Shown piece by piece: positions 1 through 39,844 of a stretch of DNA of 64,000 nt. Made by a program: the position numbers and the translations under genes. How positions within the stretch are numbered: the stretch's first letter is position 1; each line of letters opens with the position of its first letter. The notes beneath the pieces are model-generated. The model ran no database searches. It was not told the DNA's origin and saw nothing but the letters and a program-made list of their open reading frames with translations. Source of the stretch: Eledone cirrhosa (taxonomy: Eukaryota); NCBI GenBank assembly GCA_964016885.1, contig OZ024742.1, forward strand, positions 216,442,001 to 216,506,000, written 5' to 3'.

Positions 1-650
1 TATATATATATATATTTGTCTGGGGGTGTAGATGGGTGGGTGTGGATATCTGTGTATACATGTATATGTATCACACACACACTCACACAGAAAGACACAA
101 ACACACATGTGTATATGTATATATATATATATGTGTGTGTGTGTGCGTGCGAATTCCTCTTCTTTCCTATATTTCCTATCGTTTAAAGTGTATTTATATT
201 CGTTATTTTTTACCACAGAAAATAACGCTTCCTTTTCTCTCCACATTTGAACTATTCTTTTCATAAAATATTTTTTTATTATAATTCTCCTCTTTCCTTT
301 TTTCCTCTCTAAGTATTTGTTTTCTCTCACCGATTTCTTCATGTAGTTTACCATTTCATTCAATTTTTTGTCATCCTTATAGCTTTGATTTGTTCAATAC
401 CTCCCTACATCATATCGCATTTGCCATAAAACAACGTATCCAGAAAAAAGTTTTGCATGTTTTCTATTTTTTTTTTCTTTTCTTTACATATTTATTTCCT
501 TTCTGGTAAGTCCGCGCCTGAAAATGTAGCTCAGTAATTCTTTAAGGGATTTACATAAATACAAACATACACGCGAATGCGCACACACACTTGTACTCAC
601 ACACACTCACAGACACCCACTCACATACACACACACATACACACACGCAC

Positions 651-692
<42 letters not shown>

Positions 693-2351
693 ATCTGTGA
701 GCGTATATATATATGTTTGTATGTATGTATGCATATATAAACATCCAAATATATATATGTATATTTCTTTATGGGTGTGTGTATGAGCATGTGTAGATGC
801 AAGCATGCACATACATATTCTTTTCTCCATTAATTCTATTTCGCTATCCTGAGATCTTGTTCTTTTCTTTAAAAACTCAGAACACAATCAATACTAGATG
901 TAATGTTATCGATCTGACACAGAATGAAATCATACATTTACAAATTATTCAATATTACTTTTCTCCAGCATCTTGCTTTCTAAGCTCTCCACATACATGC
1001 ATACATTTATGCATAATGTATTCATACACAGCCACATATATACAAACACACACGAATGAATGTATATTTGTGTGCGTGTGTGTATGTGTTAGTTTGGGTG
1101 TCAGTGTAATTATACGTGTATATATATATATATATGCATTTACAAGCTTCATTCTATATATGGACACATATATACCTATATACATACATTTACATATATA
1201 CGAAGTATATGCATTTATATCTATATCTCTATATATTGAATATATGCATATATATAAATATATATTGATGCTTTTATGCATATGTGTGTGCGTTTCTACG
1301 TATATACGTATTTATGCATGATTGTATATTATTTATTTCTGTTTTCTTTTTTGGAGGGGGTACACCATTTTTTTTTCTTCTTTCTTGTGTTCTTTTATGT
1401 CATGTGACTCTTGGTATATTTCTTTATATTCTTTTCATCTTGTCTTTATTTTTAATTTATGTTCAGTGTTCCATCACAACGTATATTTAAAAGAATTTCT
1501 GCCCTAGAAAAATATTTGTTTTCATAAAACTTTATGTTTTATCTTCAAGGTTGCCTCTTAATGTTTTGTTGTTTATTTTTTTACATATATTGAAGTTGAT
1601 GTCTATGTTTCGTTACACTTAATATGGAATACATATTCTATTGATATTTGGAGGGGGCTTTGTTGCTGTTTCTTTAAATTCCATATGTTTTTACTATGTC
1701 TATTCTTTGATAATTTTTATCATATTGTTTAGTTCAAGCTTTATTTGCTTTCCACTTATAATTGGTTGTCAATAATTTCGCATGATTTTTCACACTTAGA
1801 GTTTACTTTACTTACTTTAAATCACATTTCGTGAATAAGAGCGTCGTTGTATACATGTTTCAAACAGTATTCTGATGAGTGCAGTATATTTACAATGAGT
1901 GGAATGGCATGACTATAACTGCTTGCAGCTTGGACTCAACTAATATTTCAATGGAAACCACCACTTTATTCATGTTCATGTCTTTGTTTAAAACATATGT
2001 GGATATACAACACCGAAAGCTATACGCTTTACGCATACATACATAATTATATGTATATACATAAATACATATATATATTTACACCAGCATAGTACATGCC
2101 AACATTGTCGATGTTTATTAGGTAAAAAAATATAACTTAATAATATTAATATATTGATTAAAACAATCAATGCAAAGGTGCTTGAGTAATCTATTTTTCT
2201 TGACCCTCTCGCATTGTCATTTCGGCCACCGTCATGTTTCATTTACAATAATTTTCTTCTATATTTTCTTTAATGATTATCGAGCTTATATGCGCTAAAT
2301 TGTCATGATTTTGTTCTACTTATCTATCTATATTCGAGAGTTTATTCGGAT

Positions 2352-2399
<48 letters not shown>

Positions 2400-2994
2400 A
2401 CAAGAACAATAATAACAAAAATAAGCCATAAATCCGAATAAACTCTCGGATAATAAACCACTGTAAGTTCTCGCAGCAGAAAGAACCTATTCTATAAATA
2501 TGGATTAAATAACACTGAGCCTCAATACGATACAATCATTTACTACATCAAACATTCAATACGAATTCATCGTAACATATGTGATGGATGTAAAAACTAT
2601 AACTTCCTTTTTCTGAATGTGAAAATGGTGATGGATGCGAAAACTATAACTTTCTTTTTCTTTTTCTGCACACATACTTTTTTGATCTATACAAAAAATA
2701 CCCTACCACTACAACCACCATAATACTCTTGCTTACCCGCTTAAAGTGCTTGCATTACATGTAACACCTTGCCACACAATACTCGTATATAAATGAGACA
2801 CACTTTCATGCTCTATGTATGACTAACGCATACACTATCTACTAGATCTGATTATCGAACTACCCTCTTGCATTATCTGTGTTATCTGCCGCATGTATTT
2901 TAATTTTGATTTTAAATTTGAATTGCTGTACAAGTATAGTATAGTATAATATGTGTCACTCCACTGTACATCAATATATATATATATATGTGTA

Positions 2995-3130
2995 TCTGTA
3001 GGTCTCTTGCGTTGGAAAGGAGGTCAATTATATGTACAAGCATTGAAAAATGCTCCGAAAACTCCAAGCTTAGGTTTGGATGAAACAATTGTAAGTGAAT
3101 AAATGCTTTGAACAAAGCTTTGATTCTTGC
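2995..3130 (+). mobile_element. Penelope-type pLTR fragment (family C) with degenerate hammerhead motif
   Basis: Reverse-complement homolog of 29342-29470. Contains tgct-CCGAAAA-ctccaagc/gtttgga-t-GAAA-CAATTG-TA-agtg at 3051-3097. Confidence 0.6.
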
Positions 3131-3157
3131 GAATTCTATATAACTGCTCTGTAGAAC

Positions 3158-3344
3158 GTGGATTGGCAGTATCGGTAGAGGGTCGGACGCCATGCTTTCC
3201 AGCATAGTTACGTCCCTTTACGATCTGAGTTCAAATCCCGCCGAGGTTGACTTTGCCTTTCATCCTTACGGGGTCGATAAAATAAAGTACCAGTAATGCA
3301 CTGGATAATTGCTGGCCTTGTGCCTAAAGTAGAAACAGTTATTA
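3158..3344 (+). mobile_element. tRNA-derived SINE (octopus-type family 1)
   Basis: A-box-like TGGCAGTATCGG, B-box GAGTTCAAATCC, and body gactttgcctttcatccttacggggtcgataaaataaagtaccag. Near-identical copies at 38045 and 39657. Confidence 0.85.
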
Positions 3345-3439
3345 CATTGAGCTATTTATCTTACTGGTAATAAGGTAGTAATAAATTACTGACCTTTACT
3401 GTTTATAGTTTAAAATATACATAACTATAAATAGTATCC

Positions 3440-3515
<76 letters not shown>

Positions 3516-3701
3516 TTTCTGAATCTGTTTAGCAAGATTCTTTATCTGAAATCGTTTGTTGAAACCGATATTGTTATACTTTGGGAGGGTCATGTTGCCA
3601 ATAAGAAACACACGCACCAGTGGCTTTCACTTCAATTTATTATATATTTATAAATTTCTGGTTGGGTGGTTGGTTCCACAGCCAGATAGTTGTTTATATA
3701 T

Positions 3702-3746
3702 AGTCATAGTTCTTTCGTCACACACTCTGTGACCTCTTCAGTGACT
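3702..3746 (-). ncRNA. Minimal type I hammerhead ribozyme motif
   Basis: Minus strand: AGTCA-CTGAAGA-G-GTCAC agagtgt GTGAC-GAAA-G aa C-TA-TGACT (helix I AGTCA/TGACT, CUGANGA core, helix II, GAAA, very short helix III, UA site). Confidence 0.75.
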
Positions 3747-3918
3747 GGGGATTCCTTTCTTTGTTTCTGTGCCTCTCCTTTGTTCTGTCCTACGCCATTT
3801 TGTTTCTGTGTGTGTGTTGTGTGCTCAGTCTGCGCATGCGCCACATCCGGGTGTCTGTGTGTGTTTATGTTCATTTATTTATTTGTTTATTTGCACAGAA
3901 ACAAAGAAAGGAATCCCC

Positions 3919-3963
3919 AGTCACTGAAGAGATCACAGAGTGTGTGACGAAAGAACTATGACT
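3919..3963 (+). ncRNA. Minimal type I hammerhead ribozyme motif
   Basis: AGTCA-CTGAAGA-G-a-TCAC agagtgt GTGA-C-GAAA-G aa C-TA-TGACT. Confidence 0.75.
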
Positions 3964-4089
3964 ATATATAAACAACTATCTGGTTGTGGAACCAACCAAC
4001 CAACCAGAAATTTATAAATATATAATAAATTGAAGTGAAAGCAACTGGTGCGTGTGTTTCTTATTGGCAACATGACCCTCCCAAAGTAT

Positions 4090-4138
<49 letters not shown>

Positions 4139-4333
4139 TACACATACATAAATAGATAGCTATAGATTGACATTCAAACAGACAGACACACACGGACTGG
4201 TAGTATGATAGGTAGGTAGGTAGGTACGTCGAAAGACATCTTCGTAGAAAGAAGGATAGGTAGATAGGAAGGTAGGTGGGTAGATAGGTAGAGAGATAGT
4301 TAGATAGACAGATACTTATATACATACACAGAG

Positions 4334-4335
<2 letters not shown>

Positions 4336-4394
<59 letters not shown>
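4336..4394. repeat. (GATA)n microsatellite at the 3' flank of Tx1 copy A
   Basis: Perfect GATA tandem array abutting the element 3' end. Confidence 0.95.
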
Positions 4395-4623
4395 TTCTAT
4401 TTATTTGCCACGAGGGCACAAAAGAAGGGGACAAATACACAGTGGGGGAGTTTACATAAATCGAGTAAAGAAAAAAGGAATAACAATATTAATATAATAA
4501 TAAAAAGTCCTCAAAAGGGAGGGGGCGTGTTGGGGATTGCACATACCCCCGAAAAGTGTGCAACCCTTTTCGCGGGGGAAGCCCAGAGAGGAGGCGCTCC
4601 CCCTTTCCTCTTCACTTCTTCAC

Positions 4624-7600
4624 CTACAGAACAATGTAGAGAGAAGGCCCATTTACACGAGCCATTCTCGCTTCTTTCACCCACCTTTCATAAAACTGTC
4701 TGGGGCCAAACACTTCTCTCTCCATCCTGATCCTTCTTCCGAAGTGGTATCGGAAGAAGTAAACCAGGTGTTGGCCGGAGAGAAAGTCACCCGACCTCAG
4801 ACCTTTCAGGCGCGTCCACCACACAACCTCTTTCATCATGGCTATTACGCACAGAAAGACCGCCTCTGCTTCATTTCTGCAGGGAGGAGGCGGCTTGATA
4901 TTCACCACAGACTCGGGGGCCAATCGAATCGGCGCCACACGCGACAGCAGTTGTTCGACGTAGCCCCACAGATCGGCAACGCCCGGGCAGTGTACCAGTG
5001 CGTGCGCAACCGTTTCCTCGTCGCGCACGCATCTGGGACAGATCTTTTTCGCGGGATCCCTGCCCGGGCGCCCGTGTCTGTAGAGCTTTTCTCGAACGGG
5101 CAGAGCCCCCCCGGTAGCACTGCCAGGCTAGGGACCTCTGGAAGTTGTCCATGGGTCCCAGGCCGAAAGTTCTACCGAAGAGGCTAGCCAGTTCGTCCTC
5201 CTCCATGCCTAGCGACTCTCCAAGGGTGTCGTCGCCCCTGCTAGCCACCAGCCCTCTATAGAATGTCGAGGTGGATTATCCACTGATAGTCGGGTCCGCT
5301 TGCCAGAGAGCCGTGAGCGCCTGGGCACACTCGGTGTGCCAATTGCCCAGTTTTCTCGGTCTTTGCTTCACCGGTGAGCGAGACGAGCTGTGGGAAGGCT
5401 CGCCTCACAAACGGGGCCCACACCGGCTGACCGGTGAGGAATACCTGTAGATGCCGTAGTCTCAATGCGTGCCTACGCATCAACAGCCATGGCATACCAA
5501 GCCCTCCTTTCGAAGGGTGCTGGCAGCAGATGGATCTCCTCACCATGGGAGGCCGCTTCTTCCAGAAGAACTGGAAGTGCATGCGCTCCATGATGGTGAG
5601 CGTTTCCTTAGGGCAAGGCCCGACGGTCAGGCGGTAGTAGATGACGGACGCTATATAAGCGTTCGCCACCTCCGCCTGACCTTTCAGTGATAGTTTGCAC
5701 TTGGCCCACTTCTGAGTCAGCGCAAACACCCTGCTCGTCACCTCGCCCCAATTCTTCTCCACCTGGAGGTCCGGTCCGAACCAGACCCCGAGCAGCTTCA
5801 CCGGGCCCTCCGTCCACCGTCCGATGACACCGTCTAACGGCATCGGTTTGCCCCTCCACGTTCCGAGTTGCAAACCGACTGACTTGTCCCGGTTCAGCCT
5901 AGCCCCCGTCAGCCTTTCGTATTCCTCCAGTAGGGTGGCGCGATCACCCCGATTTCCGAGGCGTCCGCCACCATTACTGTTACGTCGTCGGCATAGGCGG
6001 AGACCGCTTTGTGCAATCACGGTTCCATAGGTATGCCCCGCAGCAACTCCAACTTCCGCAGCAGTGGCTCGAGAGCCAATACGTACAGAAGGGAGGAGAG
6101 GGGGAACCCCTGCCTGATGGACCGGGTGATTTGAAACGGGTCCGAGAGGTAGCCGTTTACTTTAACCCTAGAGCAGACGTTGCCACTGTGCATGGCAGAA
6201 ATCCAGCCCCTGAAAACGGGTCCGAAGCCCGCCGCCACTAGCACCGCATCCAGGTAACCATGGTCGACCCTATCGAACGCCTTAGATTAATTCAAGTTGA
6301 TCAGGGCCCCACCAAAGCCGGGTTCGTTCCCAACCCTCTCTACGATGTATCGCATGAGGTGGAGGCTGTCGTGAATGGACCCGGACGGGATAGCGCATGT
6401 CTGCGCGTCTCCCACCAAGCCACCCACCACAAGCGCCAACCTCTTCGCTAACACCTTGGCCAAAATCTGTAACTCTGCATTCAGCAGAGTTATGGGCCTA
6501 AAGTTACTTAAGTCGTCCTCCTTGCTCTCGTCCTTCCTCACTAGCGTGACTACGCCCTTGGTCACAGAACAGGGAATTCTCCCGTTCTGTTGCCAGTTGC
6601 AATACACAGCCTCGAGGAGTTCGGAGAACAAGACCGGCATAGCTAAATAAAGTTCGACTGGTAGACCATCGAGACCCGGAGATTTGCGTCTGCTGCATTG
6701 GCTGAGCGCTTCCCCGATTTCAGTGGCTGTGATTGGCCTCGAAAGACGCGGTAGACCGTCGAGGTATGGACCGAAGTCCACATCCCCGTCCGGCCCCCCG
6801 CCCCCTCGAACAGTCGAGCAAAGTGCCTTTGAAAGGCCTCGCACATCCGCTCAGGTTCAAGGATCACCCGTCCATCCTGGTCTCGCAAAGACCGAATGGT
6901 GGATTTAATCCCACTCTTGGCTTCTGTCACGTGGGCCCAGCTAACAGTTTTGGTCCCTTTGTTTCCTAAAGCACGTATTTTACTTCGGACAACGCAGCCT
7001 TCGTGCTTCGCGTCAAAGAACAGGCTCAACGCCGTTCTCGACGCTAACACTCTGGCCACGTCTCCGCTCCTAATCGCCTCTTCTAGTTTATCTGTCAACT
7101 CCCTTTCCCTCCTATTTCTATTCGCCGCTAGTTCCTTACTGTAACCTATCGAACTTACTCTAATCTCTCTCTTTAGAGATACCCACCACCTGCTGTTGAC
7201 GATCGCTCCCGTCAACCTTATCTTAACTAAGCTACTAATCCGGTTCCTGTAAGCTTCCTTTGCTGGCAAGGACAAGTTCATCTTCCAGTAACCGGGACCC
7301 TGTCTATGCGTTCTATCAAGGTTGACCACGCAGGTCACTAATTTGTGATCTGAATAGCCAAACATGAGCAATTCTGGACAACTAAATACGTCCCTATCCT
7401 TACTCCTAACCAAAAACCTATCTAGGTACGATCTAGATTGACCACTGCGGTTTGCCCAGGTCCAGGTTGGCACAGTTGGAAAATCTAGTCGAAATCTATC
7501 GACCAGGTCGAATCGAGTAACCCCTTGAGGCTGCTACACCCCCCTCTATCGGGACATGCCCCTGCATAGTCCCAACGCGCATCTAGGATTCCATTCCAGT

Positions 7601-8021
7601 CCCCCACTAAAAGCAGGGAACGCGACGTTCCTAGAAAAGTCTCCAGACCCTTGAAGAAGTCGGCTCTTTCAGCGCCGAAGGGGGCATAAAGACCGACCAG
7701 TCTGAAAGCCCCGCCTTCACCGCCTCCGACGTCCAGCACCAGTAATCGACCCCCCGGGTCCGAGTGAACAATCTGTACGTCGAGAGCCAGACGTTTATCC
7801 AGCTGTACGGCAACCCCACCCCCGCCTCCGGGTTGACAGAGAGATGCGTGCATCTCAAAGTCATCGAAGGCGGGAGCCAGCTGTCGCACGCTGCTGATCC
7901 GACTCTCGCAAAAAACCATCACATCTATACTTCGTGACCTGAGGTCACTTAGAAGCTTTGCTTGCTTCCAAGCTGAGCCCAGGCCACGCGCATTCAAACA
8001 ATCAACTCTCAATTGATCTAT
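4624..8021 (-). pseudogene. Tx1 copy A ORF2 (AP endonuclease, reverse transcriptase, C-terminal Cys/His finger), frameshifted
   Basis: Motifs CLNARG, GDWN, SYLDRF, SDH, GPGYWKMN, KSPGLDG, FRPITLLN, RQGFPLSSLLY, YADD, LLGVWF, CPRC..ETVAHALVHC, spread over several frames. Confidence 0.92.
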
Positions 8022-10025
8022 TTTGGTGTTGAAAGTGAAGAAAGAAAAGCACCTACCTCTCCGGGTTGTGTAATTTCCATGGGGTCGGGTGTGTTGGGTG
8101 GAGGGATGTTTTGTGGTGGTGTGGAGGTATCCGAGTGTGGTGGAGTTGGCGTGTTTGGAGTTGTGTCAGGGAGAGGGGAGGTTATGGGGAAATATTTCAA
8201 GAGGACGCGATTTAACGGTTTTAAACAGAGGGGGGGGGGCTCACATCCTGTTTAAATTGTTCTTTTAAGGAACGATAAAGGTACAGAGGGACCTTTATCA
8301 TTTTTAAATGGGTGAAGTTCTCTGTTGAGATAAAGTTTGGCCCTTCGGTCTGCACCAAAGGGCTATTGTTTATTAATTTAAACAGTTTTTTTGTTTTCTT
8401 TATTTATATATGTGTATTGTAAAGTCTTTTTTTGTGATGCTGTCAATGTTTCGAAGAGGGGAGGCGCAGATTTATTTTTGTTTGTCGAGGGTGGGGTGTT
8501 TTTTATTGGAGTTGGTGTTTGTGTGTGGGTTATTTGTTGTTGTGGTGTGCTGGGTGTGTGCTTTCGTTTTTTTCTTTTAACTTGTCTGAAGGCTTCTCCT
8601 CCTTCTTCTTCAGAAGTTGGGGAAAACTCTTCCGCGCTAGGTGGGAGGGAATGTGGTGTCTGGTTGTTGTTTTTTTGCGGGAGGGGTAGATTTGTTGCTG
8701 TTTTTTTTTATTATTTGTTTGGAATGTGTTTTGTGGTGGTGTTGATGTTTGTGTCGTGCTTGTGGTTGGTGATGGTGGTGGTGATGTTTGTGTTGTGGTT
8801 GGTGATGGTGGTGGTGATTTTTGTGTCGTGCTTGTGTTTGGTGCTGGTGGTGGTGATGTTTGTGTTGTGCTTGTGGTGTCTGTATTTTGTTTGTTGTGTG
8901 TGGTATTAGTGTATTTTTGGAGGTGGATGGTGTTGGTGTACTGTTTGTGGTGGGTGTGGGCAATAGTCCTTTTAGGGGGATACGATTCGGGCAGTTAGCC
9001 TTAACGTGTCACCTTTCCGTGCATGAATAGCATGCTGGTCTTCTCCCCTCTACAATTATATATATTGGGGTGAGGTCATCCAGCCAGATGCGATCCGGGA
9101 TTTGCGCTATTCTTTCGGGCCTCATTTGGACTAGTAGGTCGAGGCCCATTCCCAGGAACGCATCTCCAGATGCCGTCCCCATTGACAGCACTGTGTCCTC
9201 GCCCATGTCTATGAAGCCAGCAATAGCCCACCAGAAGTCCATTGTGGGCAGCATTGTCTGTATTTTGACTCTCTGAGTTCTTCTACCCATGTAGGAGGGA
9301 TAGAAGCTGTATGTTGTTGATGTGAGTGGGCTTAGGGAAAGCCTCTGTGCTGTTTCCTTGTCTTTTGTTAAGACAGAAATGCTGCCATAGGGTCGGTCCT
9401 TTCGTATGAAGAGAATATTCTTCATATGGTCTTTTAGGATCAACTCTATCTCCATTTGGCTGGGCTGTGCTGGCTTTCTTGTGTTGTTTAGGACTGTTCT
9501 AAACAGAACAGTGTTTTCTAGTTTCGTTTTCTTGAATTCTGGGGGGGAATTAATGGAAAACATTCCGTTCTCCACCAAGACTATGTGTTTTTTGGCTTTT
9601 GCCAGTTTCCTTCTGGTGGCAGTTAAGTCTATAGGTGTATATATGATAGATTTGTTTGTTGTCTGTGCGAAAGTTGTTTTTGTTGTGTTTGTGTTATTTA
9701 TGTTGGTGTATTCGTTCACATTTTTTTTTTCAAAATCTTCACTTATATTTTCATTATCCGAGATAGTTGTAGTCACAGCTACTACTTCTCTTTCACCTTT
9801 GCTGGTGGGCGTGGAGCCGTGAAATGTCGAAACGTCATCCATTAATTTTGGCAATTTCTCCGAGTTAATTTTTTTCACATTTTTTTCATTAGGGTTAGGT
9901 TCCATTTTTTCAATGTTTCTAATAATCATTATTCTTTCAGTATGGTGGCTTGTTGCCTCAGCTACCCGATCTCCTTCAGTTTGTTTAGTGGGCGTGTCAT
10001 CGTTACCTGTGGTAATGGCTTCCAT
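8018..10025 (-). pseudogene. Tx1 copy A ORF1 (gag-like, CCHC knuckle, Thr/Pro/His-rich low-complexity tail)
   Basis: Starts MEAITT at 10025. Knuckle EGRRPACYSCTER*HVKANC is interrupted by a stop. Homologous to copy B ORF1. Confidence 0.8.
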
Positions 10026-10488
10026 TACCACTAGCGTAGAGACAATTGCAAGATTTTTAGGATGAAAAATTTCACCCCAAAAGGGGTGAAATAAATTAAT
10101 CCTAATGTCCGAAGACCCAGCAAGGGGGTTAATTAACACAATAACGCAAGAATACAGACAAACACTTACTGTTAACACGTAATATCTCCAATATTCGCGG
10201 AGCCGATGTGAAGCACGTCTATGCCATCCGGAGATAGATAGATAGATAACTTTCTATTTATTTGCCACCAGGGCATCACAGATTGGGACAAACACAGGGG
10301 GGGGGGTTACATACATTTCGAAGGACGTGTAAAAACATATAACAAGTAAAAATCAACAATCGAAGTCCTCAATAGGGAAAGGGCGTTGACGTGGATCGCA
10401 CACACCCCCGAAGAAATGTGCAACCCTCCTCCTCGGGAGCACAAAGAGCGGATGCTCTCTTCCTCTCCTCTTTCTTCTCCTCTCTCAC

Positions 10489-13475
10489 CTACAGGCTGAT
10501 ATAAAGAGAAGGCCCATTCGCTCGGGCCATTCTCGCCACTTTCACCCACCTATCCTAAAACTTGCTGGGGTAGAGCACCTCTCTCTCCATTCTGATCCTT
10601 CTTCTAAAATGGTACTTGAAAAAAAGGACTAGTTGTTGGCCGGAGAGAAAAGTGTCTGACCTCAGCCCTTTCAACCTCATCCACCATACAACCTCTTTGG
10701 CTAGCTCGTCTTCCTCCATGCCCAAAGCCTCTCCGAGAGCGTCGTCGCACTTGCTGCGCACCAACCCTCTATAGAATGTTGAGGTTGAGTCTCCACCGAT
10801 TGCCGGATCCGCTTGCCAGAGGGCTGTGAGCGCCTGGGCACATTCAATGTGCCAGTCGCCCATTTTTCTCAGTCTTTGCTTGACCCAGGATTGCAGCTCG
10901 GTGAGTGAGACGAGTCTCGGAAAGGCTCGCCTCACAAAAGAGGCCCACACCGGCTGACCGGTGAGGAATACCTGGAGGTGCCGTAGCCTAATGCATGTGT
11001 ACGCATCGTCATCCACAGCATCTCCAGCCCTCCGTTCGAAGGGTGTTGACAGCAGATGGATCTTCTCACCAAAGGGGCCCACTACTTCCAAAGGAATCGG
11101 AAGAGCGTGCGCTCCATTTTGGCGACCGTTTTCGCTGGGCAAGGCACGACGATCAAGCGGTAGTAGATGACGGACGCTATATAAGTGTTCGCCACCTCCG
11201 CTCGACCTTTCAGGGATAGTTTGCACTCGGCCCACTTCTGGGCCAGTGCAAACACCTTGCCTGTTACCTCTTCCCAGTTTTTCTCCACCTGGATGTCCTG
11301 TCCGAACCAGGCCCCCGAGCAGCTTCACCGGTCCCTCTGTCCAGCGTTCCGAGTTGCAAACCGACGGACTTGTCCCGGTTCTGTTTGGCTCCTGTAAACC
11401 TTTCGTATTCCTCCGATCTGCCCGATTTCCGAGGCGCACAACACCATTACTGTCACGTAATCGGCGTAGGCAGCTACCGCTTTCCGCAATCCCAGTTCCA
11501 AGAGGATTCCCTGTAACAGCTCCAACTTCCGCAGTAGTGGCTCGAGAGTCAGCACATACAGAAGGGAGGAGAGAGGTTATCCCTGTCGGATGGATCCCGT
11601 GATTTGGAACGGCTCTGAAAGGTAGCCGTTCACCTTGACCCTCGAGCAGGTGTTGCTGCTGTGCATTGCAGCAATTCAGCCCCTGAAAACCGGTCCGAAG
11701 CCTGCCGCCGCGAGCACCGCATCCAGGTACCGATAGTCGACCCTATCGAACGCCTTAGATTGATTCAAGTTGATCAGGGCCCCACCAAAGCCGGGTTCGT
11801 TCCCTACCCCTCTCTACGATGTATAGCATGAGGTGGAGGTTGTCGTGTATGGACCTGGACGGGATTGCGCATGTCTGCGCTTCTCCCACCAGGTTCCCGA
11901 CGACAAGCGCCAACCTCTTCGCTAACAACTTGGCCAAAATCTTTAACTCTGTGTTTCGCAGAGTTATGGGCCTGAAGTTATCTATGTCATCCCCCCTTGT
12001 TCTCGTCCTTCCTCACCAGCGTGACTACGCCCTTGGTCACAGAACTGGGAATTCTCCCGTTCTGTTGCCAGTTGCAATAGACCGCCTCGAGGAGGTTGGA
12101 GAACATGTCCGGCATCGCTACATAAAGTTCGTATGGTAGACCACCGAGACCGGGAGATTTGCGTTTGCGTTGGCCCAGCGCTTCCCCTATCTCAGCGGCT
12201 GAAATCGGCCTTTCGCAGGACTTCGCCTCCCCCTACGAGATCCGCGGCAGACCATCGAGGTATGGACCGAAATCCATGGCCTCACGCGTCCCGCCGCCCC
12301 TTCCGAACAGTCGTGCAAAGCGCCGTTGAAAGGTTCAAGAATGCGCTCGGGTCAAGGATCACGCTTCCATACTGGTCCTTCAAAGACTTGTTTCCACTTT
12401 TTGCCCCTGTCACTTGGGCCCCTCGTTACCCAGAGCACGTATTTTACTCCTGACAACGCAGCCATCGTGCTCGCGTCAAAGAACTGGTCTAGGGCCGTTC
12501 TTGACGCCAGCACGCCGGCCACGTTGCCACTTCTAATCGCCTCTTCTACCCTATCCATCAATTCCCTTTCAGGTCTATTCCTATCTGATGCTAATTCCTG
12601 ACTAAAACTTATCGATTCTATTCTAATTTCTCTCTTGAGATATCCCCACCACCTGCTGTTGACAATTGCCCCCGTCAAACGCTGCTTAACTAGAGTGCTA
12701 ATCCACCATACTGTAAGCTTTGTTTGTCGGTAAGGACAAGTTTAGCTTCCAGTAACCGGGTCCTTGTCTATGGATTCTATCAAGGTTGACCACTCCGGTC
12801 ACCAACTTGTGATCCGAATAGTCAACCATGAACATTCGTGGACAGCTTAATATGTCCTTATCCTTATTTCTAACTAGGTACGAACTAGATGTTCCGCTAC
12901 GATTAGACCACGTCCACAGTGGCACAGTCGGAAAAACTAGTCGATATCTATCGGCCAGATCAAATCGGCCGATTAACCGTTTGAGGCTGTTACACCCCCC
13001 TCTATCGGGACATGCCCCTACATAGTCCCAACGTGCATCAAGGATACCATTTCAGTCGCCCCACTAAACGCAAGGAGCAAGACGTTCCCTGAAAAGTCTC
13101 TAGGCGTTGGAAGAAATTCGGTCACTGTGTCCCAGATGGGGCATACGCCGCTACCAGCCAGAAGGCTCCACCTTCACTACTGCCGACGTCTAGAACCACC
13201 AGTTGGCCCTCCGGGTCCAGGTGTACCTTCCGTGTTGCGAGCCCCAGGTGTTTTCGCAGCAGAACGACCACCCCGCCCCACCCCCCGGCTGACAGAGAGA
13301 TACATAGATCTCAAAGTCGTCGAAGATGTAGCTAGTTGGTGCTCGCTGCTGATCCTGGACTCGCAAATAGCTATCACATCCATTCTGTGCGACCTGAGGT
13401 CATTTAAGAGTTTGCCCTGCTTCCAAGACATCCCCAACCGCGCACATTTAGACATCCAACTCTTATAACAGCCAT
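10489..13475 (-). pseudogene. Tx1 copy B ORF2, many frameshifts, C-terminal finger deleted
   Basis: Starts MAVIRVGCLNVRG. Contains YSDHKLV, GPGYWKLN, AQTCAIPSRSIHDN and AYADY. MEEDELA is joined directly to KEVVWW. Confidence 0.9.
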
Positions 13476-15342
13476 GTTGGTGGTGAAGAGTTTAGAGTGG
13501 AGAAAAAGTAAAATACACCTATCTGTCCTTCTCTTGGGTATCAGGCAGCACAATTTCCATTGGGGTGTCGGCGGGGTTGTTTGGTGGAGTGGTGGTTTGG
13601 GATGTGGTGGGGACATCACTGTGTGGTGAGGAGGGATGTATGGGGTGGTGGGGGGAGGGGTGTTTGGTGGCGGAGGGGTGTATGGGGTGGTGGTGGGGAA
13701 CATTTCAAGAGGACGCGGTTGCTAGGTCTAGTACAGGGGTTCCCCACGTCCTCGGGAAAGTTCTGTTTGAGCATTGCGTAGGTGTCCCTTGGGACCCTAA
13801 TCATTTTTAAATACGGTTTAGTTGCCGCGTTGGTGAACATTTTTCCTTCGGTTTCCATCGAAGGGTATTTGTCTATTGTTTGCACAAGTGTTTTGTTGTT
13901 TGGTCTTGATGTATGTATACTGTTTTTGTTGTGTTGTGTTTGTTTTTGTTTGTTGTTCTTGTGTGTGTTTGCGTTTTGTAGTATGTGTTATGTTTTCGGG
14001 TGGGGTGGGGTTTTTTTTGTTTGTGCTGGTGGCTGTGCGTTTGTTATATTTTTGTTGATGTGGTGCCTTCTTTTCTTTCTTTTTACCGGTTGAAAGGGTT
14101 CTCCCTCGTCGTCACTGGGTGACGTTGATAAGGGGTCCTCATCCGTTTTGTTGGGGAGAGGTATATTTTGGGGTTTGTTGTGGTTGCTTTTGTATTTGTT
14201 TTAGGTGGGGAGGGGTTGGGTGGGACAGTGTCTTGTGTTGTTATTTTTTCGTGTTGTTGTAGTTGTTGTGGTGGTGATGATGGTGGTTGTGTTGTTGTGT
14301 GCGGGGTGGGCAGAAGCGTCTTTTTTTTTTGGGGGGGGGGCATTTAAAAAGGGACAAGAAGCCTTCAGGTGACCACTTCTTGGACAGTGGTAGCATGAAG
14401 GCCGCCTGCCCTAAACAGAAATGTTTATGAAGGCTACTTCCTCCAGGGACACACGCTGCGGTATTCTTGCTATCCGTTCTGGGGTCATTTGGACCAGAAC
14501 TGCAAGGGTTTTGCCGCCGAATACACCTCCGGTGGATTCGTCTATCGAAAGGATTGTGTCCTCATCTTCTAAGAATCCCGTTAGCCCCCACCAAATGCTC
14601 CCATTTGGCCTGATGCCCGAGATTCTTATCTTTTGAGTTCTTTTCCCCAAATATGTCGGGAAAAAGGTGTATGCTTTGGATACAATTGGTGACACAGAAT
14701 ATTTCGGTGCCGCCAATTCATCTTGCATTAAAACAGATATGCTTCCATACAGTTTCCCTTTGTGTATGAAAGCGATATCCTTCCAGGCACTATTTAGGAC
14801 CAGCTCATTTTCGCTTTGGGACAATTGAGCCGGTTTCCTAGTCGTGTTCGAAACTGTCCTCAAAATTACAGTCCTGAGGACTGTGTCCCTTCTAATTTAT
14901 TCGGCGTAGGTAATTGTGAATTCCCCACCTTCCCCGAAACGTACACAATTCCTTGCTTCTTTCAGCAATTTCTTGGCATTCGAGATGTCCAGTGCCTTGT
15001 ATGTCTGCGTTTCTCCAACCGCCTGTGCGAAGGAGACTGCAGCTGTGGGTCCGTTTTCTGTCGAGTTGCTATCATTGTTGTTGTTGTTATTCGTGTTGGC
15101 ATGCTTTTTTCCTTTGTTGGTGTTGACATTATTGCTGTTGTTGGTTGTGTTGTTATTGTCATTGTTGTTCTTGTTTGTGTAATTGTTACTTTTGGGGTTT
15201 TCACCCATTTCCACAATTTTTCTTTTGATTCCGTGGTGTCTTTTGTGGGAGTGAGGAGGGAAGGCTTACAGCGTTGTGCTGCTACCTTCTCTCTATCACT
15301 TTCCTTGGGGGGCGTGGCATGCGTCATGTTAATGGCGTCCAT
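13476..15342 (-). pseudogene. Tx1 copy B ORF1
   Basis: Starts MDAINM. Intact CX2CX4HX4C knuckle GRRPSCYHCPRSGHLKASC near 14350-14410. RKPAQ and YGSISVL blocks are shared with copy A. Confidence 0.8.
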
Positions 15343-15545
15343 TGTCACTAAACGACTTTTTATCGATAACTTATAACTATCAAATTTCGCCCCAAAAAGG
15401 GGCGAAATTTATTTTACCCAACGTCTGCAGGCCCAGGCGAGGGTTAAACACAACAAATAATAAGTAGCTTAAACAAACCTACCGCTTCTCGTAATAAATT
15501 CCGACAAAATGCAGGAGCGAAACAAAAATACGTCTATCTTCTTCG

Positions 15546-15584
<39 letters not shown>

Positions 15585-15585
15585 C

Positions 15586-15673
<88 letters not shown>
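15546..15673. repeat. (GATA)n microsatellite at the 5' flank of Tx1 copy B
   Basis: About 32 GATA units with one GACA variant. Confidence 0.95.
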
Positions 15674-16160
15674 TACCAGATTTTGGCCGCTGGAATTCGC
15701 GATCGTATTCTTTCGGTCATTACGCAAGATACATGACCACGTGTGAGGTTTACCACGAATACCAAATTGAAGATAGCGAGTTTGGCTTTTATACCTACCC
15801 CGCTTATTCTGAATACTGTATGGTGAAGTTGGTGCATTACTACACCAGCTCCTGCAATTACTGCACCTAATTTATTCTCCTGCCTTCTATCACTCGTGAA
15901 AACGGCACAGAAATGCTTGAATGTCTCCACATGCTTCAGAGCAAATTCACTCACAAGTATAGGGCACTCTACAGGGTTATTTGAGAGCACAAGTGCCTCC
16001 ATCATCTCAGCACTGACTATCATTCCTATAATGCAGCACTTGGCAGCAAACCTATCAAGTGCCTGTCGGAGATCACCTTCTGATGAGTTACGTAGACTCA
16101 GGTTATCTGCAAATAGCAACCGACTTCAGGACAATAAGAAGCTGTCCGTGGATTCCATAC
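15674..16160 (-). mobile_element. RTE-clade LINE fragment (RT C-terminal part)
   Basis: [49 protein letters not shown]. Homologous to 19139-19720. Confidence 0.8.
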
Positions 16161-16324: not shown

Positions 16325-16325
16325 T

Positions 16326-16362
16326 TCGTTTCTGAATTGGCAACATGACCCTCCCAAAGTAT

Positions 16363-16370
<8 letters not shown>
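16326..16370 (+). mobile_element. 45-bp internally deleted copy of the family A element
   Basis: tcgtttctgaat (as at 3513) fused to tggcaacatgaccctcccaaagtataacaatat (as at 4066-4098), inside (TA)n. Confidence 0.75.
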
Positions 16371-17549: not shown

Positions 17550-17840
17550 TTTGTACATTAACTAATCTACGAAGTAAGACGATCGAATTAAAACAATGTC
17601 TTCCGAGATACTTGAACTTCTCTACCTGCTTCAGTGGAATTCCATTCACATGTAGCGTGCACTGCGTCGAAGAAGTGTCTCAGTTTTCGAAGCACTGATT
17701 TTCATTCCAACCATGTAGCACTCGGCACAAACCTATTGAGTGCAAGTCAGAGATCACCTAATGCATTAAATGTTTCGGAGGCAAATTTGTTGAGTTTCAT
17801 GAAAAATTTGATCGCGTTCGATATTTTCCTGCATTGAAAT
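17550..17840 (-). mobile_element. Mariner-type transposase N-terminal relic
   Basis: Minus-strand MQENIE..AIKFFMKLNKFASETFNAL resembles the mariner N-terminal HTH start. Frameshifted. Confidence 0.5.
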
Positions 17841-19138: not shown

Positions 19139-19725
19139 TCTTCTTTGTTCACATATTCCTATGTGGGTCGTGGGGGAAGAGTCCTAAAACAATCCTTCCA
19201 GCGGGTCTTTTCAGAAGCAACCATCTCCAACTGATCTGGCTGGATCCCCAGGCGACACCAGCTAAGCTAGTGGATGTTATGCAGCCATCTTGCTCGGAGT
19301 CTGCCTATGGATCTCTAGCCGGTTGGTTTGGCCCGTAAAATCTGTCCAGCGATTCTTTCCTGAGATATTCTAACCTCGTGCCCGTAGTTCGTTGTTGTGA
19401 GCTCTCAATTCGGAAAAGTAGCGGCTCTACCTTGTGTGAGTTTCTGATCACAGAGCTGTCCAATCGATCGAAAAACGTTACTCCAAAGATCCTTCGGCTG
19501 AACCCCTTTTTGGCCGCTTGTATACGTGATCGTTTTCTTTCTGTTATTACCCAAGACACATGACTATAGGCAAGGATTGGTATGTATACCGAATCGAAGG
19601 TAGCAAGAGTGGCTTTTACACCTACTTCTCTTCTGCTGATTACCGAATGCTGAATCTGGATGAGTGTTGTACCAGCTCCTGCAATTCTTGCACATAATTC
19701 AACCCTCTACCTTCCATCACTGCGA
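19137..19725 (-). mobile_element. RTE LINE 3' end
   Basis: SWVITERKRSRIQAAKKGFSRRIFGVT..VEPLLFRIESSQQR, with a 3' end at gaagaag next to (TA)n. Confidence 0.8.
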
Positions 19726-24859: not shown

Positions 24860-25072
24860 GCAGTGGATTCGCAGTATCGATAGAATGTCAGACAGCATGT
24901 TTTGCGGCATATAGTTACGCCCCTTTACGTTCTGAGTTCAAATCCCGTCGAGGTTAGTTTCGCATTTTGTATTTATGAGGTTGATAAGATAAAGTATTAG
25001 TAACGCAATGGGATCGATTTAATTGATTTCCACCTTCACTTCGAATTGCTGACCTTGTGCCAAATGTAAAAA
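24860..25072 (+). mobile_element. tRNA-derived SINE family 1, diverged
   Basis: gtggattcgcagtatcg...ctgagttcaaatcccgtcgagg...gaccttgtgcc. Confidence 0.75.
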
Positions 25073-33647: not shown

Positions 33648-35159
33648 TTAATGAATAATGGCTTGCGGGAGCTGACATTTTCGTGACAATTTATATATGT
33701 GTGTGTTTCCTTAAGAAGTAAAGGTATGCCTGAACGTGTATATATGTATTTGTATGAGCGTGTAGTATTGGTTGTATGTTCATGTTGTGTATTTGTCCGG
33801 AAGTATCACTGGGAATGACTTAAATATGTGTTCGTTGATCATGTAGGTTTCATTGTCACTATGAATGATTATATATATATGTGTGTGGAATACAAAATGA
33901 TTACTAGATGAATATTAAATGACAATATGAATGAAGCAAGAATGCCGCATCGAAATACAAAAGAGCATTACGAATAATAATCTACTTCCATATGTCTAAC
34001 TATTCTAGGGAATGTATCTTAAATATCAAAATGATCCGAATATATTTCCTCCTATATTATTATAACATTACAGAATTTCATGTGAGGTACATTTCAGCTG
34101 CCTGCCTACTTATCACCACATTATTTATCATTGAATAGAATTTTTGACATTATTACTGGTACAAATTATTTTTATTCCTTTCGCAATAGTTCACGCTTTA
34201 AACGTTAAACCAATAGTCAAACGGTTCCCGTATCATTCATCGATTTAAAATCCAAATCTTCCACTAGCAGCTTCTTTTATCAAAAAGCATACTGCAGGAA
34301 TAATTTTCCTCTACAATATATAGTGTTTTATGTTTCAACGATGGCTTTTTAGGAACTCTCATAGAACTTGATGTTTTCTTACCGTTTCACAGCTCTCATT
34401 TGAACCATTGACAGGACAGAATCTTTTGGCCAGGTTATGGTTAATATAAACTGTAACCGCAAAAGTGCCCGGTGTGTTTTTTCTCGGTAGAGTACAGCAT
34501 GAACATCTCTCACTCTTTCTCTCGTCCTCTGTCTATCTATCTCTTTCTTTTTTCTCTATCCATCTCTATAACTCCCTTTCTCACTCTTTCGCCCTCTTTC
34601 ACTCTCTCTTTTCTCTCTTTCCCTCTCGCTAGAAAACAGAAATAGATTAAAAGAACATGGGAGAAGAATCAAGACATCTAATTGCTCTGAGACTCATACA
34701 CACATGCGTACACATGTCAAACACAAACGATTGTTGTCGTAGCAACACACAAACATACACACCACCGAAAGACAAGACGGTTTAAATAGAACAAGATCAG
34801 AACAAAGAAATGACACAGAGGAGGAAGAATAGCCGTTGAAAAGGTTACCAATGTTACGCAACCAACGGCGTTTATATAATATACAATCCTTAAACACAGC
34901 TTATCATTAGACAATTGTGTTTACAAATTGCGAAACAATTCTTAGCCGATGTCGTAACAAAGCGGGTACGATTGATAAATGTATGTGCGTGTATTAGATT
35001 ATTTGTTCTTTTTAAATTTATTATAGCTAGATAAATATATACACGGTTATATATTTATATTCTTTACTTCTATCGTATAGAGTAGATAATCAAAGTAGGT
35101 TATGGTACATCAACAACATAGCCACCAAGAGTATATGTGATATATATATATATATATAT

Positions 35160-35760
35160 ATTGTTATAAATTGGGAGGGTCATTCTGCCAAGAAAAACAC
35201 ACGCACCTGTCGGTTTCACTTCAATTTATTATAAATTTCCGGTTGTTTGGTTGGTTCGATAACCGGATTGTTGTTTATGTATTGTCAAAACTCTTTCGTC
35301 ATACATTCTGTGTGACGAAATGTTATAATTATAACATTTGTTATTTTGTTATACAAAATGCCGAAGAGCAAACTGTGACACATGACTATTTTTAATTCAA
35401 GGACAAACATTTACATTTATAAATGGTCAAATATTTACAGTGAAAAAACAACTTCACTTGCAACTCAGAGAACCTGATCTACGTAATCGCATGCGGTGGC
35501 TGTCGGCAAAACTACATAGGACAGATGGGTGTGTCATTGCGCATAAGAATCCATCGTCAAGAAATCCGAGATGTAAACACAAGAAAAATCACCTTAAGTA
35601 ACCACATTGCAGATTGTGCAGGAATGACCCTACCCAACTTTAAAATCAACCCCCTTTATAAGTGCTCAGATTATTTCACAAAACAACAAAGAATATATAA
35701 AGAAGGACTATTTCTTAATAGATTGAAACCAAGATTAAATATGTAATCACCCCATTAGAT
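35160..35760 (+). mobile_element. 5'-truncated Penelope-like element: inverted family A pLTR followed by a GIY-YIG endonuclease remnant
   Basis: 35160-35320 is homologous to 3570-3730, followed by KCRRANCDT*LF.. and FTCNSENLIYVIACGGCRQNYIGQMG. Confidence 0.85.
35453..35746 (+). pseudogene. GIY-YIG endonuclease domain of a Penelope-like element
   Basis: FTCNSENLIYVIACGGCRQNYIGQMGVSLRIRIHRQEIRD...LSNHIADC...KEGLFLNRLKPRLNM*. Confidence 0.85.
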
Positions 35761-37379: not shown

Positions 37380-38044
37380 GTATTGAGAGAGAGAGACAGA
37401 TAGGTAGATAGACGCAAAGAGAGGGGGCGAAAGATATGTGAACTGGGGATGTGTAAATATATCAAGCAATTGAGTTTTGCTTTGTGAATTCATAGCAAAC
37501 ATTTTGCTGTGTCTCTAGAGAAGATAATTTCTTTTTCTATTTCATTGCAAGCGTTCGTATAAAAAAAAGCCTTTGAAAATTACGTGTGTTTAAATAGCGC
37601 TCAATGCGAGGGAAGTTTGAAGACAACGAAATCTAGAACTTTCATTAAAAAAATCGATCAAGTATACGCAAAAGTAAATATAAGAGGAACAATTCTCTCC
37701 AGTTGTCTTTATTTCATCTTTAGAAACACAAAAACATCATCTGATTTTAGTGGTTCGCATTGTTGCTTGTATTATTGATGACGATGAGCCAGGAGTCAGG
37801 TTTGTGCCCGAGAACCTATACAAGAGCTTCCAGGATTGATAGTATTAAGAGAGGAAGTTATCATTAAACCGGCATAAAATTGACACTGTTAGAGCCAATA
37901 GAATTCTAAATGCCGTAGTTAAGCCGAGCGTTGTTGTTGTTTAGCAAGTTGCTCATGTCATCCCACATGTAAGCAGACTTGTGTCCTGTTTCACCCATGA
38001 CCATACCATCATATTATCAGACAATGTATCTAAATTTTAATAAT

Positions 38045-38225
38045 TGTTTCTACTTTAGACACAAGGGCAGCAATTACCCAGTACATTACTGGTACTTTAT
38101 TTTATCGACCCCGTAAGGATGAAAGGCAAAGGCAACCTCGGCGGGATTTGAATTCAGATCGTAAAGGGACGTAACTATGCTCGAAAGCATGGCGTCCGAC
38201 CCTCTACCGATACTGCCAATCCACC
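38045..38225 (-). mobile_element. SINE family 1 with 19-bp target site duplication
   Basis: TSD gtatctaaattttaataat at 38026-38044 and 38226-38244. Confidence 0.9.
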
Positions 38226-39462
38226 GTATCTAAATTTTAATAATAACAAGTTGTAGGAGAATTTAGCTGTTATTTTTACCAGGTTGACAATTTCTTTTTG
38301 AGTTCTACTTATGCGTCTCTAAACTATTTTCTTACAACCTATTAAGTCTCTTAATAAATAGAGAACATATATCAAAGTATTTAGGGGATTGTTGCAATTT
38401 CAGTGAGTACAACACTCCTGTAGCATTAAATTGAAACCGTCTCATCTCTCTAATGTCGTCAATTACCAGAATTACAATTCTATCTACTTTATCAAATTTG
38501 TTTACACATATATCTTTAAATCTTCAAACATATGAGCATATGGATGTTTCCAATGGTACGAGTATTGTGTATGTGTCTGCGTATTGCGCGCGCCAGTATT
38601 TTGAACAGTACATAAGTGTATGCGTACGTAGGTGGTCTCTCACGTTAATTCCTCCTCCTCCCCTATTTTACCGTTCCTACTTTATTTCTTTTTTTAACAT
38701 TCTCACTTTCTACCACCCCTTCTCTCTCTCTCTTTCACTCTCTCCATCTCCTCTTGACAATTTAACTCATTCTGTATATACCTACTTATGTCTAAGCCAT
38801 TTTCCTTTCTGAGGATACATTTGTTTGGACTTGAATGTTTTTAAGTAATGCGAAATTTCTAGTTCCTTATGCACACATCTCTCCACCTACACACTATTTC
38901 TCTCTCCTTCCATTTATTTACTCTATTCTTCGTCTCTCAATTTTTCTTATATCCACAGGCCTATCCACATACATTCTATTAGCCCTTGTCATTTGAGCTT
39001 TTTTTATCAATACTATGTTTTAAACATAACGTGCCTAGCTACCTCTATCTTTCTATCCTGTTAAAAATTCATCCGTCAACCAATCTGTAGACATGCCTTA
39101 ATATGGGCATTTCTCAGTGAGATAAGCACATAAGTTATTGCACTCTGGATGTCGTCTTGAATCAGAAGATAAGGTGAGGGCCCTTAAATGTGGGATTGCA
39201 GTTCTATACCCAGATCAATTGTATGATAAATTACCTGACATTATCTAATGCTTCTCTAACTTACGAAAGCGGGGTCAAGTAGTCATTATTTACAATGAGA
39301 GCTTAGTAAGTGTTTATGTACATCCACGCAATCGACCGGTGAAAAAAGTTCGATTCATTTTTGTATAAGATTCTACGCCACAAATTCCTTGGATCCTGCT
39401 ATTTATCTTCTTGGAAGACCTAATATTATAATGTAAGAAATCCTAAAGTATTACTATTCAAA

Positions 39463-39844
39463 AATAATTGTTTCTACTTTTAGCACAAAGCCAGCAAATA
39501 CCCAGTACATTACTGGTACTATATTTTATCGACCCCGTAATGATAAAAGGCAAAGTTAACCTCGGTGGGATTTGAACTAAGACCGTAAAAGGGCATAACT
39601 ATGCTTGAAAGCACGGCGTCCGACCCTCTACCGATACTGCACTATGGAAAAATAATTGTTTCTACTTTAGGCACAAGGCCAGCAATTACCCAGTTCATTA
39701 CTGGTACTTTATTTTATCGACCTCGTAAGGATGAAATGCAAAGTCAACCTCGGCGGGATTTGAACTCAGATCGTAAAGGGACGTAACTATGCTGAAAAGC
39801 ATGGCGCCCAACCCTCTACCGATACTGTCAATCCACCGCCCTTC
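39463..39844 (-). mobile_element. Two tandem SINE family 1 copies
   Basis: Copies at 39463-39640 and 39657-39844. The second is bounded by the 20-bp duplication ctgcactatggaaaaataat. Confidence 0.9.

Follow-up and report, generated by a model that had tools for sequence, protein, structure and literature searches.

Two divergent Tx1-like LINEs stacked within one GATA microsatellite strongly suggest a preference for GATA arrays

The window, meaning the whole stretch of 64,000 bases that was analyzed, contained two minus-strand LINEs, designated A and B, arranged head to tail within one GATA microsatellite. On the element strand, the order was (ATCT)32, B, AGTT(ATCT)4, A, (ATCT)15, and 195 bases of decayed array. 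In window coordinates, the decayed GATA-type array, composed of GATA, GGTA, and GACA units and likely the old target array, occupied 4140–4334 and was followed by a pure (AGAT)15 run at the 3' end of A (4335–4394). Copy A was a 5837-bp L1-group (Tx1-like) LINE with both ends present (4395–10231, minus strand). Copy B was a 5294-bp LINE, also with both ends present (10252–15545, minus strand). The 3' end of B was joined to the 5' end of A, in register, by a spacer of AGTT-(ATCT)4 (10232–10251), and the 5' end of B bordered an (AGAT)32 run including one GACA (15546–15673). The sequence confirmed the order given in the initial annotation, namely, (GATA)n, A, approximately four GATA units, B, and (GATA)n, with both elements in the same orientation. 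Both copies had also been called full-length, which was true of their ends; however, approximately 350 bp of the C-terminal part of ORF2 was deleted from B, so that this copy was not whole.

The 3' UTR of A (4395–4623, minus strand) ended in AATAAATAGAA without poly(A), and its terminal stem was common to B according to a fold prediction from these two sequences only. ORF2 of A (4624–8021, minus strand), comprising predicted APE endonuclease, RT, and zf-RVT domains, carried several frameshifts and stops. ORF1 of A (8070–10025, minus strand, lower end approximate) contained one CX2CX4HX4C knuckle interrupted by a stop and had a low-complexity Thr/Pro/Gln tail. In B, ORF2 was broken (10489–13475, minus strand), and ORF1 was frameshifted, with a CYHC-x4-H-x4-C knuckle (13520–15342, minus strand, lower end approximate). 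Although stops and frameshifts occurred in ORF2 of both copies, the in-frame stops numbered only 3 in 877 codons of A and 5 in 701 codons of B, and the decay after insertion looks modest. The pieces of A ORF2 gave weak Pfam matches to the three domains, all below the curated cut-offs; they were 57–73% identical to the relative P0010, and together the ORF2 pieces covered the full length of relatives scoring above the RT cut-off, with P0010 and P0006 exceeding that of RVT_1. The endonuclease of A retained the motifs that correspond to L1 N14, E43, Y115, D145/N147, T192, and D205 together with SDH. A PDB search with the first endonuclease piece of A returned spurious matches only. Atlas searches returned no Tx1 name for ORF2 and, for ORF1, no explanation but weak zf-CCHC leads. 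Strong hairpins were predicted in the 5' UTRs at 10064–10092 (A, arms TTTCACCCC/GGGGTGAAA) and 15381–15411 (B, arms TTTCGCCCC/GGGGCGAAA); between these two sequences, both partners of one base pair had changed.

On the element strand, the 5' junction of B read (ATCT)n followed directly by CGAAGAAGATAGACGT; the junction between the 3' end of B and the 5' end of A read GTGGCAAATAAATAGAA, AGTT, (ATCT)4, and CCGGATGGCATAGACGT; and the 3' junction of A read GTGGCAAATAAATAGAA followed directly by (ATCT)15. Thus, A and B both terminated in GTGGCAAATAAATAGAA, and poly(A) was absent at both 3' ends. Their 5' ends had the common motif C(C)G..ATAGACGT..GCTCC. It had been noted that both 3' ends run into TCTA repeats without poly(A); this was correct for A, and for the absence of poly(A) in both, but in B the AGTT comes first. 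This AGTT reads as a decayed, in-register ATCT unit. When it is counted as such, one register was present at four of four junctions, the 5' flank ending and the 3' flank beginning with ATCT, although the copies are related and these are not four independent events. As expected from a fixed cut, the shared register places the insertion point at a fixed position within the target. In addition, ATAGA near the 5' ends (10215–10245 and 15530–15560) can pair with the upstream TCTAT flank, giving a small predicted hairpin across the 5' junction that may be due to chance.

In the 64,000 bases, GATA/TATC runs of at least three units were found at three junctions only, whereas TA, CA, TG, and TAG runs were common in the same window. 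As GATA runs were limited to the junctions, the adjacency of elements and array was far beyond chance. In the decayed array, 136 of 195 bases (70%) matched pure GATA, and none of 500 shuffles reached its score. Because decay has gone much further in this array than in the elements, the array was probably in place before either insertion, although slippage can inflate its apparent age. The proposal of (GATA)n targeting made in the initial annotation is supported in part: the rarity of the runs, the shared register, and the older decayed array point strongly to a preference for GATA arrays, as seen in two related copies at one site. A target preference of some kind for GATA is considered quite likely.

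The 5' array of B started in the middle of the coding region of another LINE. The remaining fragment of this LINE, cut off at the array (15674–16125, minus strand), had no significant Pfam match and was 73% alike to a second copy at 19508–19721, which continues for approximately 370 further bases. The fragments at 15674–16125, 17605–17759, and 19140–19721 were taken to belong to an RTE-like LINE; the last of them closed with a short GAA tail followed by (TA)n. The remainder of the interrupted LINE was not found on the far side, in positions 1–4400 of the window, and thus the empty site could not be rebuilt.

The start of the B 5' array inside a coding region would also fit repeats borne by the elements, with a (TCTA)n tail and upstream repeats included in full-length transcripts, the sites being weakly specified and the stack formed by landing in an older tail. 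Both copies are full-ended, the only kind able to carry a 5' repeat. However, the remainder of the interrupted LINE was absent beyond A, and the decayed array appears older than A and B. Moreover, as a repeat tail accounts for nothing but the 3' runs, the 5' run of B and the landing of A, which lies within five units of the end of B, need either a GATA preference or 5' repeats, and hitting a short tail would still require a GATA preference. Element-borne repeats are thus considered unlikely, although they deserve more weight than any other alternative to targeting set by the endonuclease.

Other repeats were observed in the window. At 3514–4097, (TA)n runs enclosed a 580-bp element whose inverted arms, each of 205 bp, were 98% alike, and shorter copies of it, also beside (TA)n, were present at 16325–16368 and 35132–35312; it is possibly a second element, targeting TA repeats. 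A 187-bp SINE-like repeat was present at 3158–3344, 24860–25012, 38038–38224, and 39453–39836, including a head-to-tail pair at 39453–39827.

The ORF2 DNA of A and B was 76.8% identical over 2895 columns, their last 450 bases were 75% alike, and their ORF1s were alignable by blastn in short patches only. The ORF2 differences at codon positions 1, 2, and 3 were 157/890, 120/891, and 273/892, i.e., 17.6%, 13.5%, and 30.6% (chi-square p 1e-19), which indicates that most of the divergence accumulated while the two subfamilies were active and under selection. Therefore, the third-position excess indicates two subfamilies and separate insertions, and it rules out that one copy was duplicated locally in tandem and then decayed. 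Such a duplication would account for the identical orientation and termini of A and B, but not for ORF1s that are nearly unalignable as DNA beside conserved termini, nor for lesions that differ between the copies, and it can be given practically no weight. The earlier statements that the ORF1s are strongly diverged, that the lesions differ, which was seen again on ORF2, and that the insertions were independent rather than a tandem duplication were all supported. The private residue changes, compared to obtain the age order, were 50 in A and 51 in B and gave no order.

The ORF1 of Tx1 elements is recognized by a CCHC knuckle, as opposed to the coiled-coil type of vertebrate L1. The CX2CX4HX4C knuckle was found in both A and B, and the ORF1 of a sister lineage, described below, matched zf-CCHC. 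From their two ORFs and the predicted APE endonuclease, RT, and C-terminal zinc finger of ORF2, A and B are classified as LINEs of the L1 group (L1/Tx1 clades), and Tx1 membership is likely, as it fits the domain layout. When the intact relative P0006 was compared with PDB entries, only L1 ORF2p (251 bits) and R2 (91 bits) were matched, and human L1 ORF2p (PDB 8sxt) was the closest solved structure (E 2e-73 vs 3e-25 for R2). Judged from this relative, L1 appears to be the non-LTR group nearest to the RT. Human L1 and A/B each have a nine-residue endonuclease hairpin loop; human L1 differs in its poly(A) tail and its loose TTTT/AA target, and A/B in the CCHC knuckle of ORF1. The Tx1 name itself appeared on no row of a 97-row RT tree and among none of 29 proteins looked up.

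That tree, built by a quick method, placed A and B as sisters (SH-aLRT 99) inside a 7-row clade with Argonauta (support 99), which was sister to a 25-row clade (joint support 100). The closest named protein was from Argonauta hians, with 66% identity over the matched part, which makes an octopod the likely host; for the earlier assignment to a cephalopod family, the support consists of this Argonauta relative. Another relative, from the limpet Patella caerulea (cluster P0154), had 11 members with near-consecutive locus tags (SNE40_003393–003415), probably another tandem array of intact elements. Separately, three large viral contigs (L084–L086) gave LINE RT-like matches of 28–32% identity.

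The sister lineage comprised 36 overlapping loci (L087–L121 and L135) in host-like DNA inside a bacterial MAG record (G001), with 42–45% identity to P0010. It formed head-to-tail arrays of mostly intact, near-identical 6.4–6.9 kb units, in several subfamilies and with some units 5'-truncated. No microsatellite followed AATAAA at the 42 distinct 3'-end contexts listed, and the outer flanks of the arrays differed and were unrelated. These could be satellite-like or self-targeting LINE arrays. As the sister arrays lack a microsatellite, stacking alone is no sign of a repeat target. Moreover, a search of 133 loci belonging to more distantly related elements turned up no GATA run of at least five units, a count that a four-unit spacer would escape. 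Taken together with the sister arrays, this indicates that the wider group did not have the GATA association as an ancestral trait.

These arrays also bear on whether the stack was joined after insertion, either because GATA runs at two separate loci recombined or through a general tendency to form head-to-tail arrays. The arraying of the sister lineage and the near-consecutive locus tags of the limpet relative speak for such joining, as do the outer flanks of the A/B locus, which rebuild no single empty site. On the other hand, the sister units are near-identical and A and B differ by 23%, and each 5' end would still require a GATA run of its own. Later joining is therefore regarded as improbable, distinctly more so than element-borne repeats.

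Further copies were searched for in contigs, metagenomes, and sequencing reads. The 18-base 3' motif gave three matches in viral contigs, all one unrelated sequence. A metagenome scan with the ORF2 C-terminus gave 190 pattern matches, none of which was confirmed; in a second scan, of which 80 of 386 results were kept, the best segments showed 24–46% identity, and none was close. A genome-contig scan yielded 50 loci with full-length rows at most 45% identical to P0010 and no close copy. Part of A ORF2 was present in 12 of the 18 sequencing runs listed and half of ORF2 in none; no RNA run was among the runs listed as holding A ORF2. Related sequence was found in the reads of four runs under three coded organism labels. 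Reads running over the ends of the stretch, either end being counted alike, amounted to 71, 110, 0, and 1589 records in four runs. Read depth was far higher over ORF2 than over ORF1, and related subfamilies swamped the layout; the excess fits 5' truncation but also cross-mapping of other subfamilies. Loose read ends at a junction were not seen among the 24 rows listed, beside 11,127 others. A family is regarded as target-specific when the same flank type occurs in >20% of its copies (the rule of Kojima 2015); here, a GATA flank was present in two of two copies, both at one locus.

These results are best explained by separate insertions of two subfamilies, likely from a single Tx1-type lineage, into one GATA microsatellite that was probably there first. 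An APE endonuclease with an inferred (GATA)n preference would nick the GATA strand, most simply at the T-A step (AGAT/AGAT), although a staggered cut in another register is possible. The freed 3' end would prime reverse transcription from the 3' end of the RNA, whose read-through UCUA repeats likely take the part of a poly(A) tail by pairing with the primer. Because repeats are kept on both flanks, the target would survive and the site would be reusable, so that a later copy could land a few units away and form a stack. A probability of roughly 0.68 was assigned to this endonuclease-led targeting, in which a Tx1-type lineage cuts the GATA strand and starts reverse transcription from that nick.

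The layout expected of a target set by the APE endonuclease alone would also arise if a read-through repeat tail paired with the nicked strand. In this alternative, the endonuclease is unselective, and the repeat-ended RNA finds its target by pairing with GATA DNA that is nicked or slipped. Neither 3' end has poly(A), each continuing into the repeat, and RNA–DNA pairing is named as a possible additional targeting factor in Repanas 2007 (PMC1950540). However, the choice of target in Tx1 elements is ascribed chiefly to the endonuclease (PMC4494074), and both the conserved catalytic motifs and the loop shared by A and B speak against pairing as the only determinant, which is rated slightly below element-borne repeats and likewise unlikely. 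The endonuclease hairpin loop had 9 residues in A and B, with NRSG common to both, compared with 11 in L090 and L118, which form arrays without spacers; the loop has 9 in L1 and 11 in the Tx1L graft. The L1 loop is described as affecting nicking specificity, more by structure than by sequence (PMC1950540). Nine-residue loops were common among the relatives (18 of 97 proteins scored), and the difference in loop length between A/B and the array formers may serve as a lead only.

Waldo and Mino belong to the R1 clade and Dong to the R4 clade. These families insert into (ACAY)n, (AC)n, and (TAA)n, respectively, and Togen, placed near NeSL, into (TG)n (PMC3812793 and PMC4640811). They resemble A/B in using a microsatellite as a multicopy target, but their clades and units differ. 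Closer precedents are the Tx1 families targeting (TC)n (Kibi), (TTC)n (Koshi), and crocodilian (TTCC)n/(TTTC)n; the precedent of Kibi and Koshi, which had been cited from the outset, was found in PMC4494074. Likened by description, these families and A/B are APE-type, have a microsatellite on both sides, and have a pyrimidine-rich element strand, but the unit of A/B is ATCT/GATA and the host is likely an octopod. The word GATA was absent from the text of PMC4494074, whose target-listing tree figure and supplements may bear on novelty. For Octopus vulgaris, 80 L1-Tx1 families, 13 of them recently active, are reported with no target stated (PMC13282606), and A and B may belong to these catalogued families. 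Octopus surveys likewise list L1-Tx1 families without targets in the sections covered (PMC13282606, PMC8967140, PMC9115989, and PMC10294476). Tandem dimers are described as arising from insertion-site preference and repeated insertion (PMC5932611). The literature searched contained no GATA-targeting LINE; a prior note in Repbase, Dfam, or Kojima and Fujiwara 2004 is possible. Thus, the A/B lineage is probably a new target variant, Tx1 elements in microsatellites and stacking by repeated insertion being already known.

A broader proposal, to be viewed as tentative and somewhat doubtful, is that an octopod Tx1 sub-lineage may have a (GATA)n-specific APE endonuclease, kept in at least two subfamilies 23% apart, and that the sister lineage may have dropped repeat targeting and come to build satellite-like arrays of intact elements. 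If true, the finding would extend the microsatellite-targeting LINEs to a new repeat unit and a new group of hosts and would supply a nickase for one of the commonest animal tetranucleotide repeats. Octopod GATA markers would then often be interrupted by multicopy LINEs. Moreover, the lineage would offer a testable case of change in APE endonuclease specificity, and A/B and the sister lineage would form a natural pair for determining what switches target choice in LINEs.
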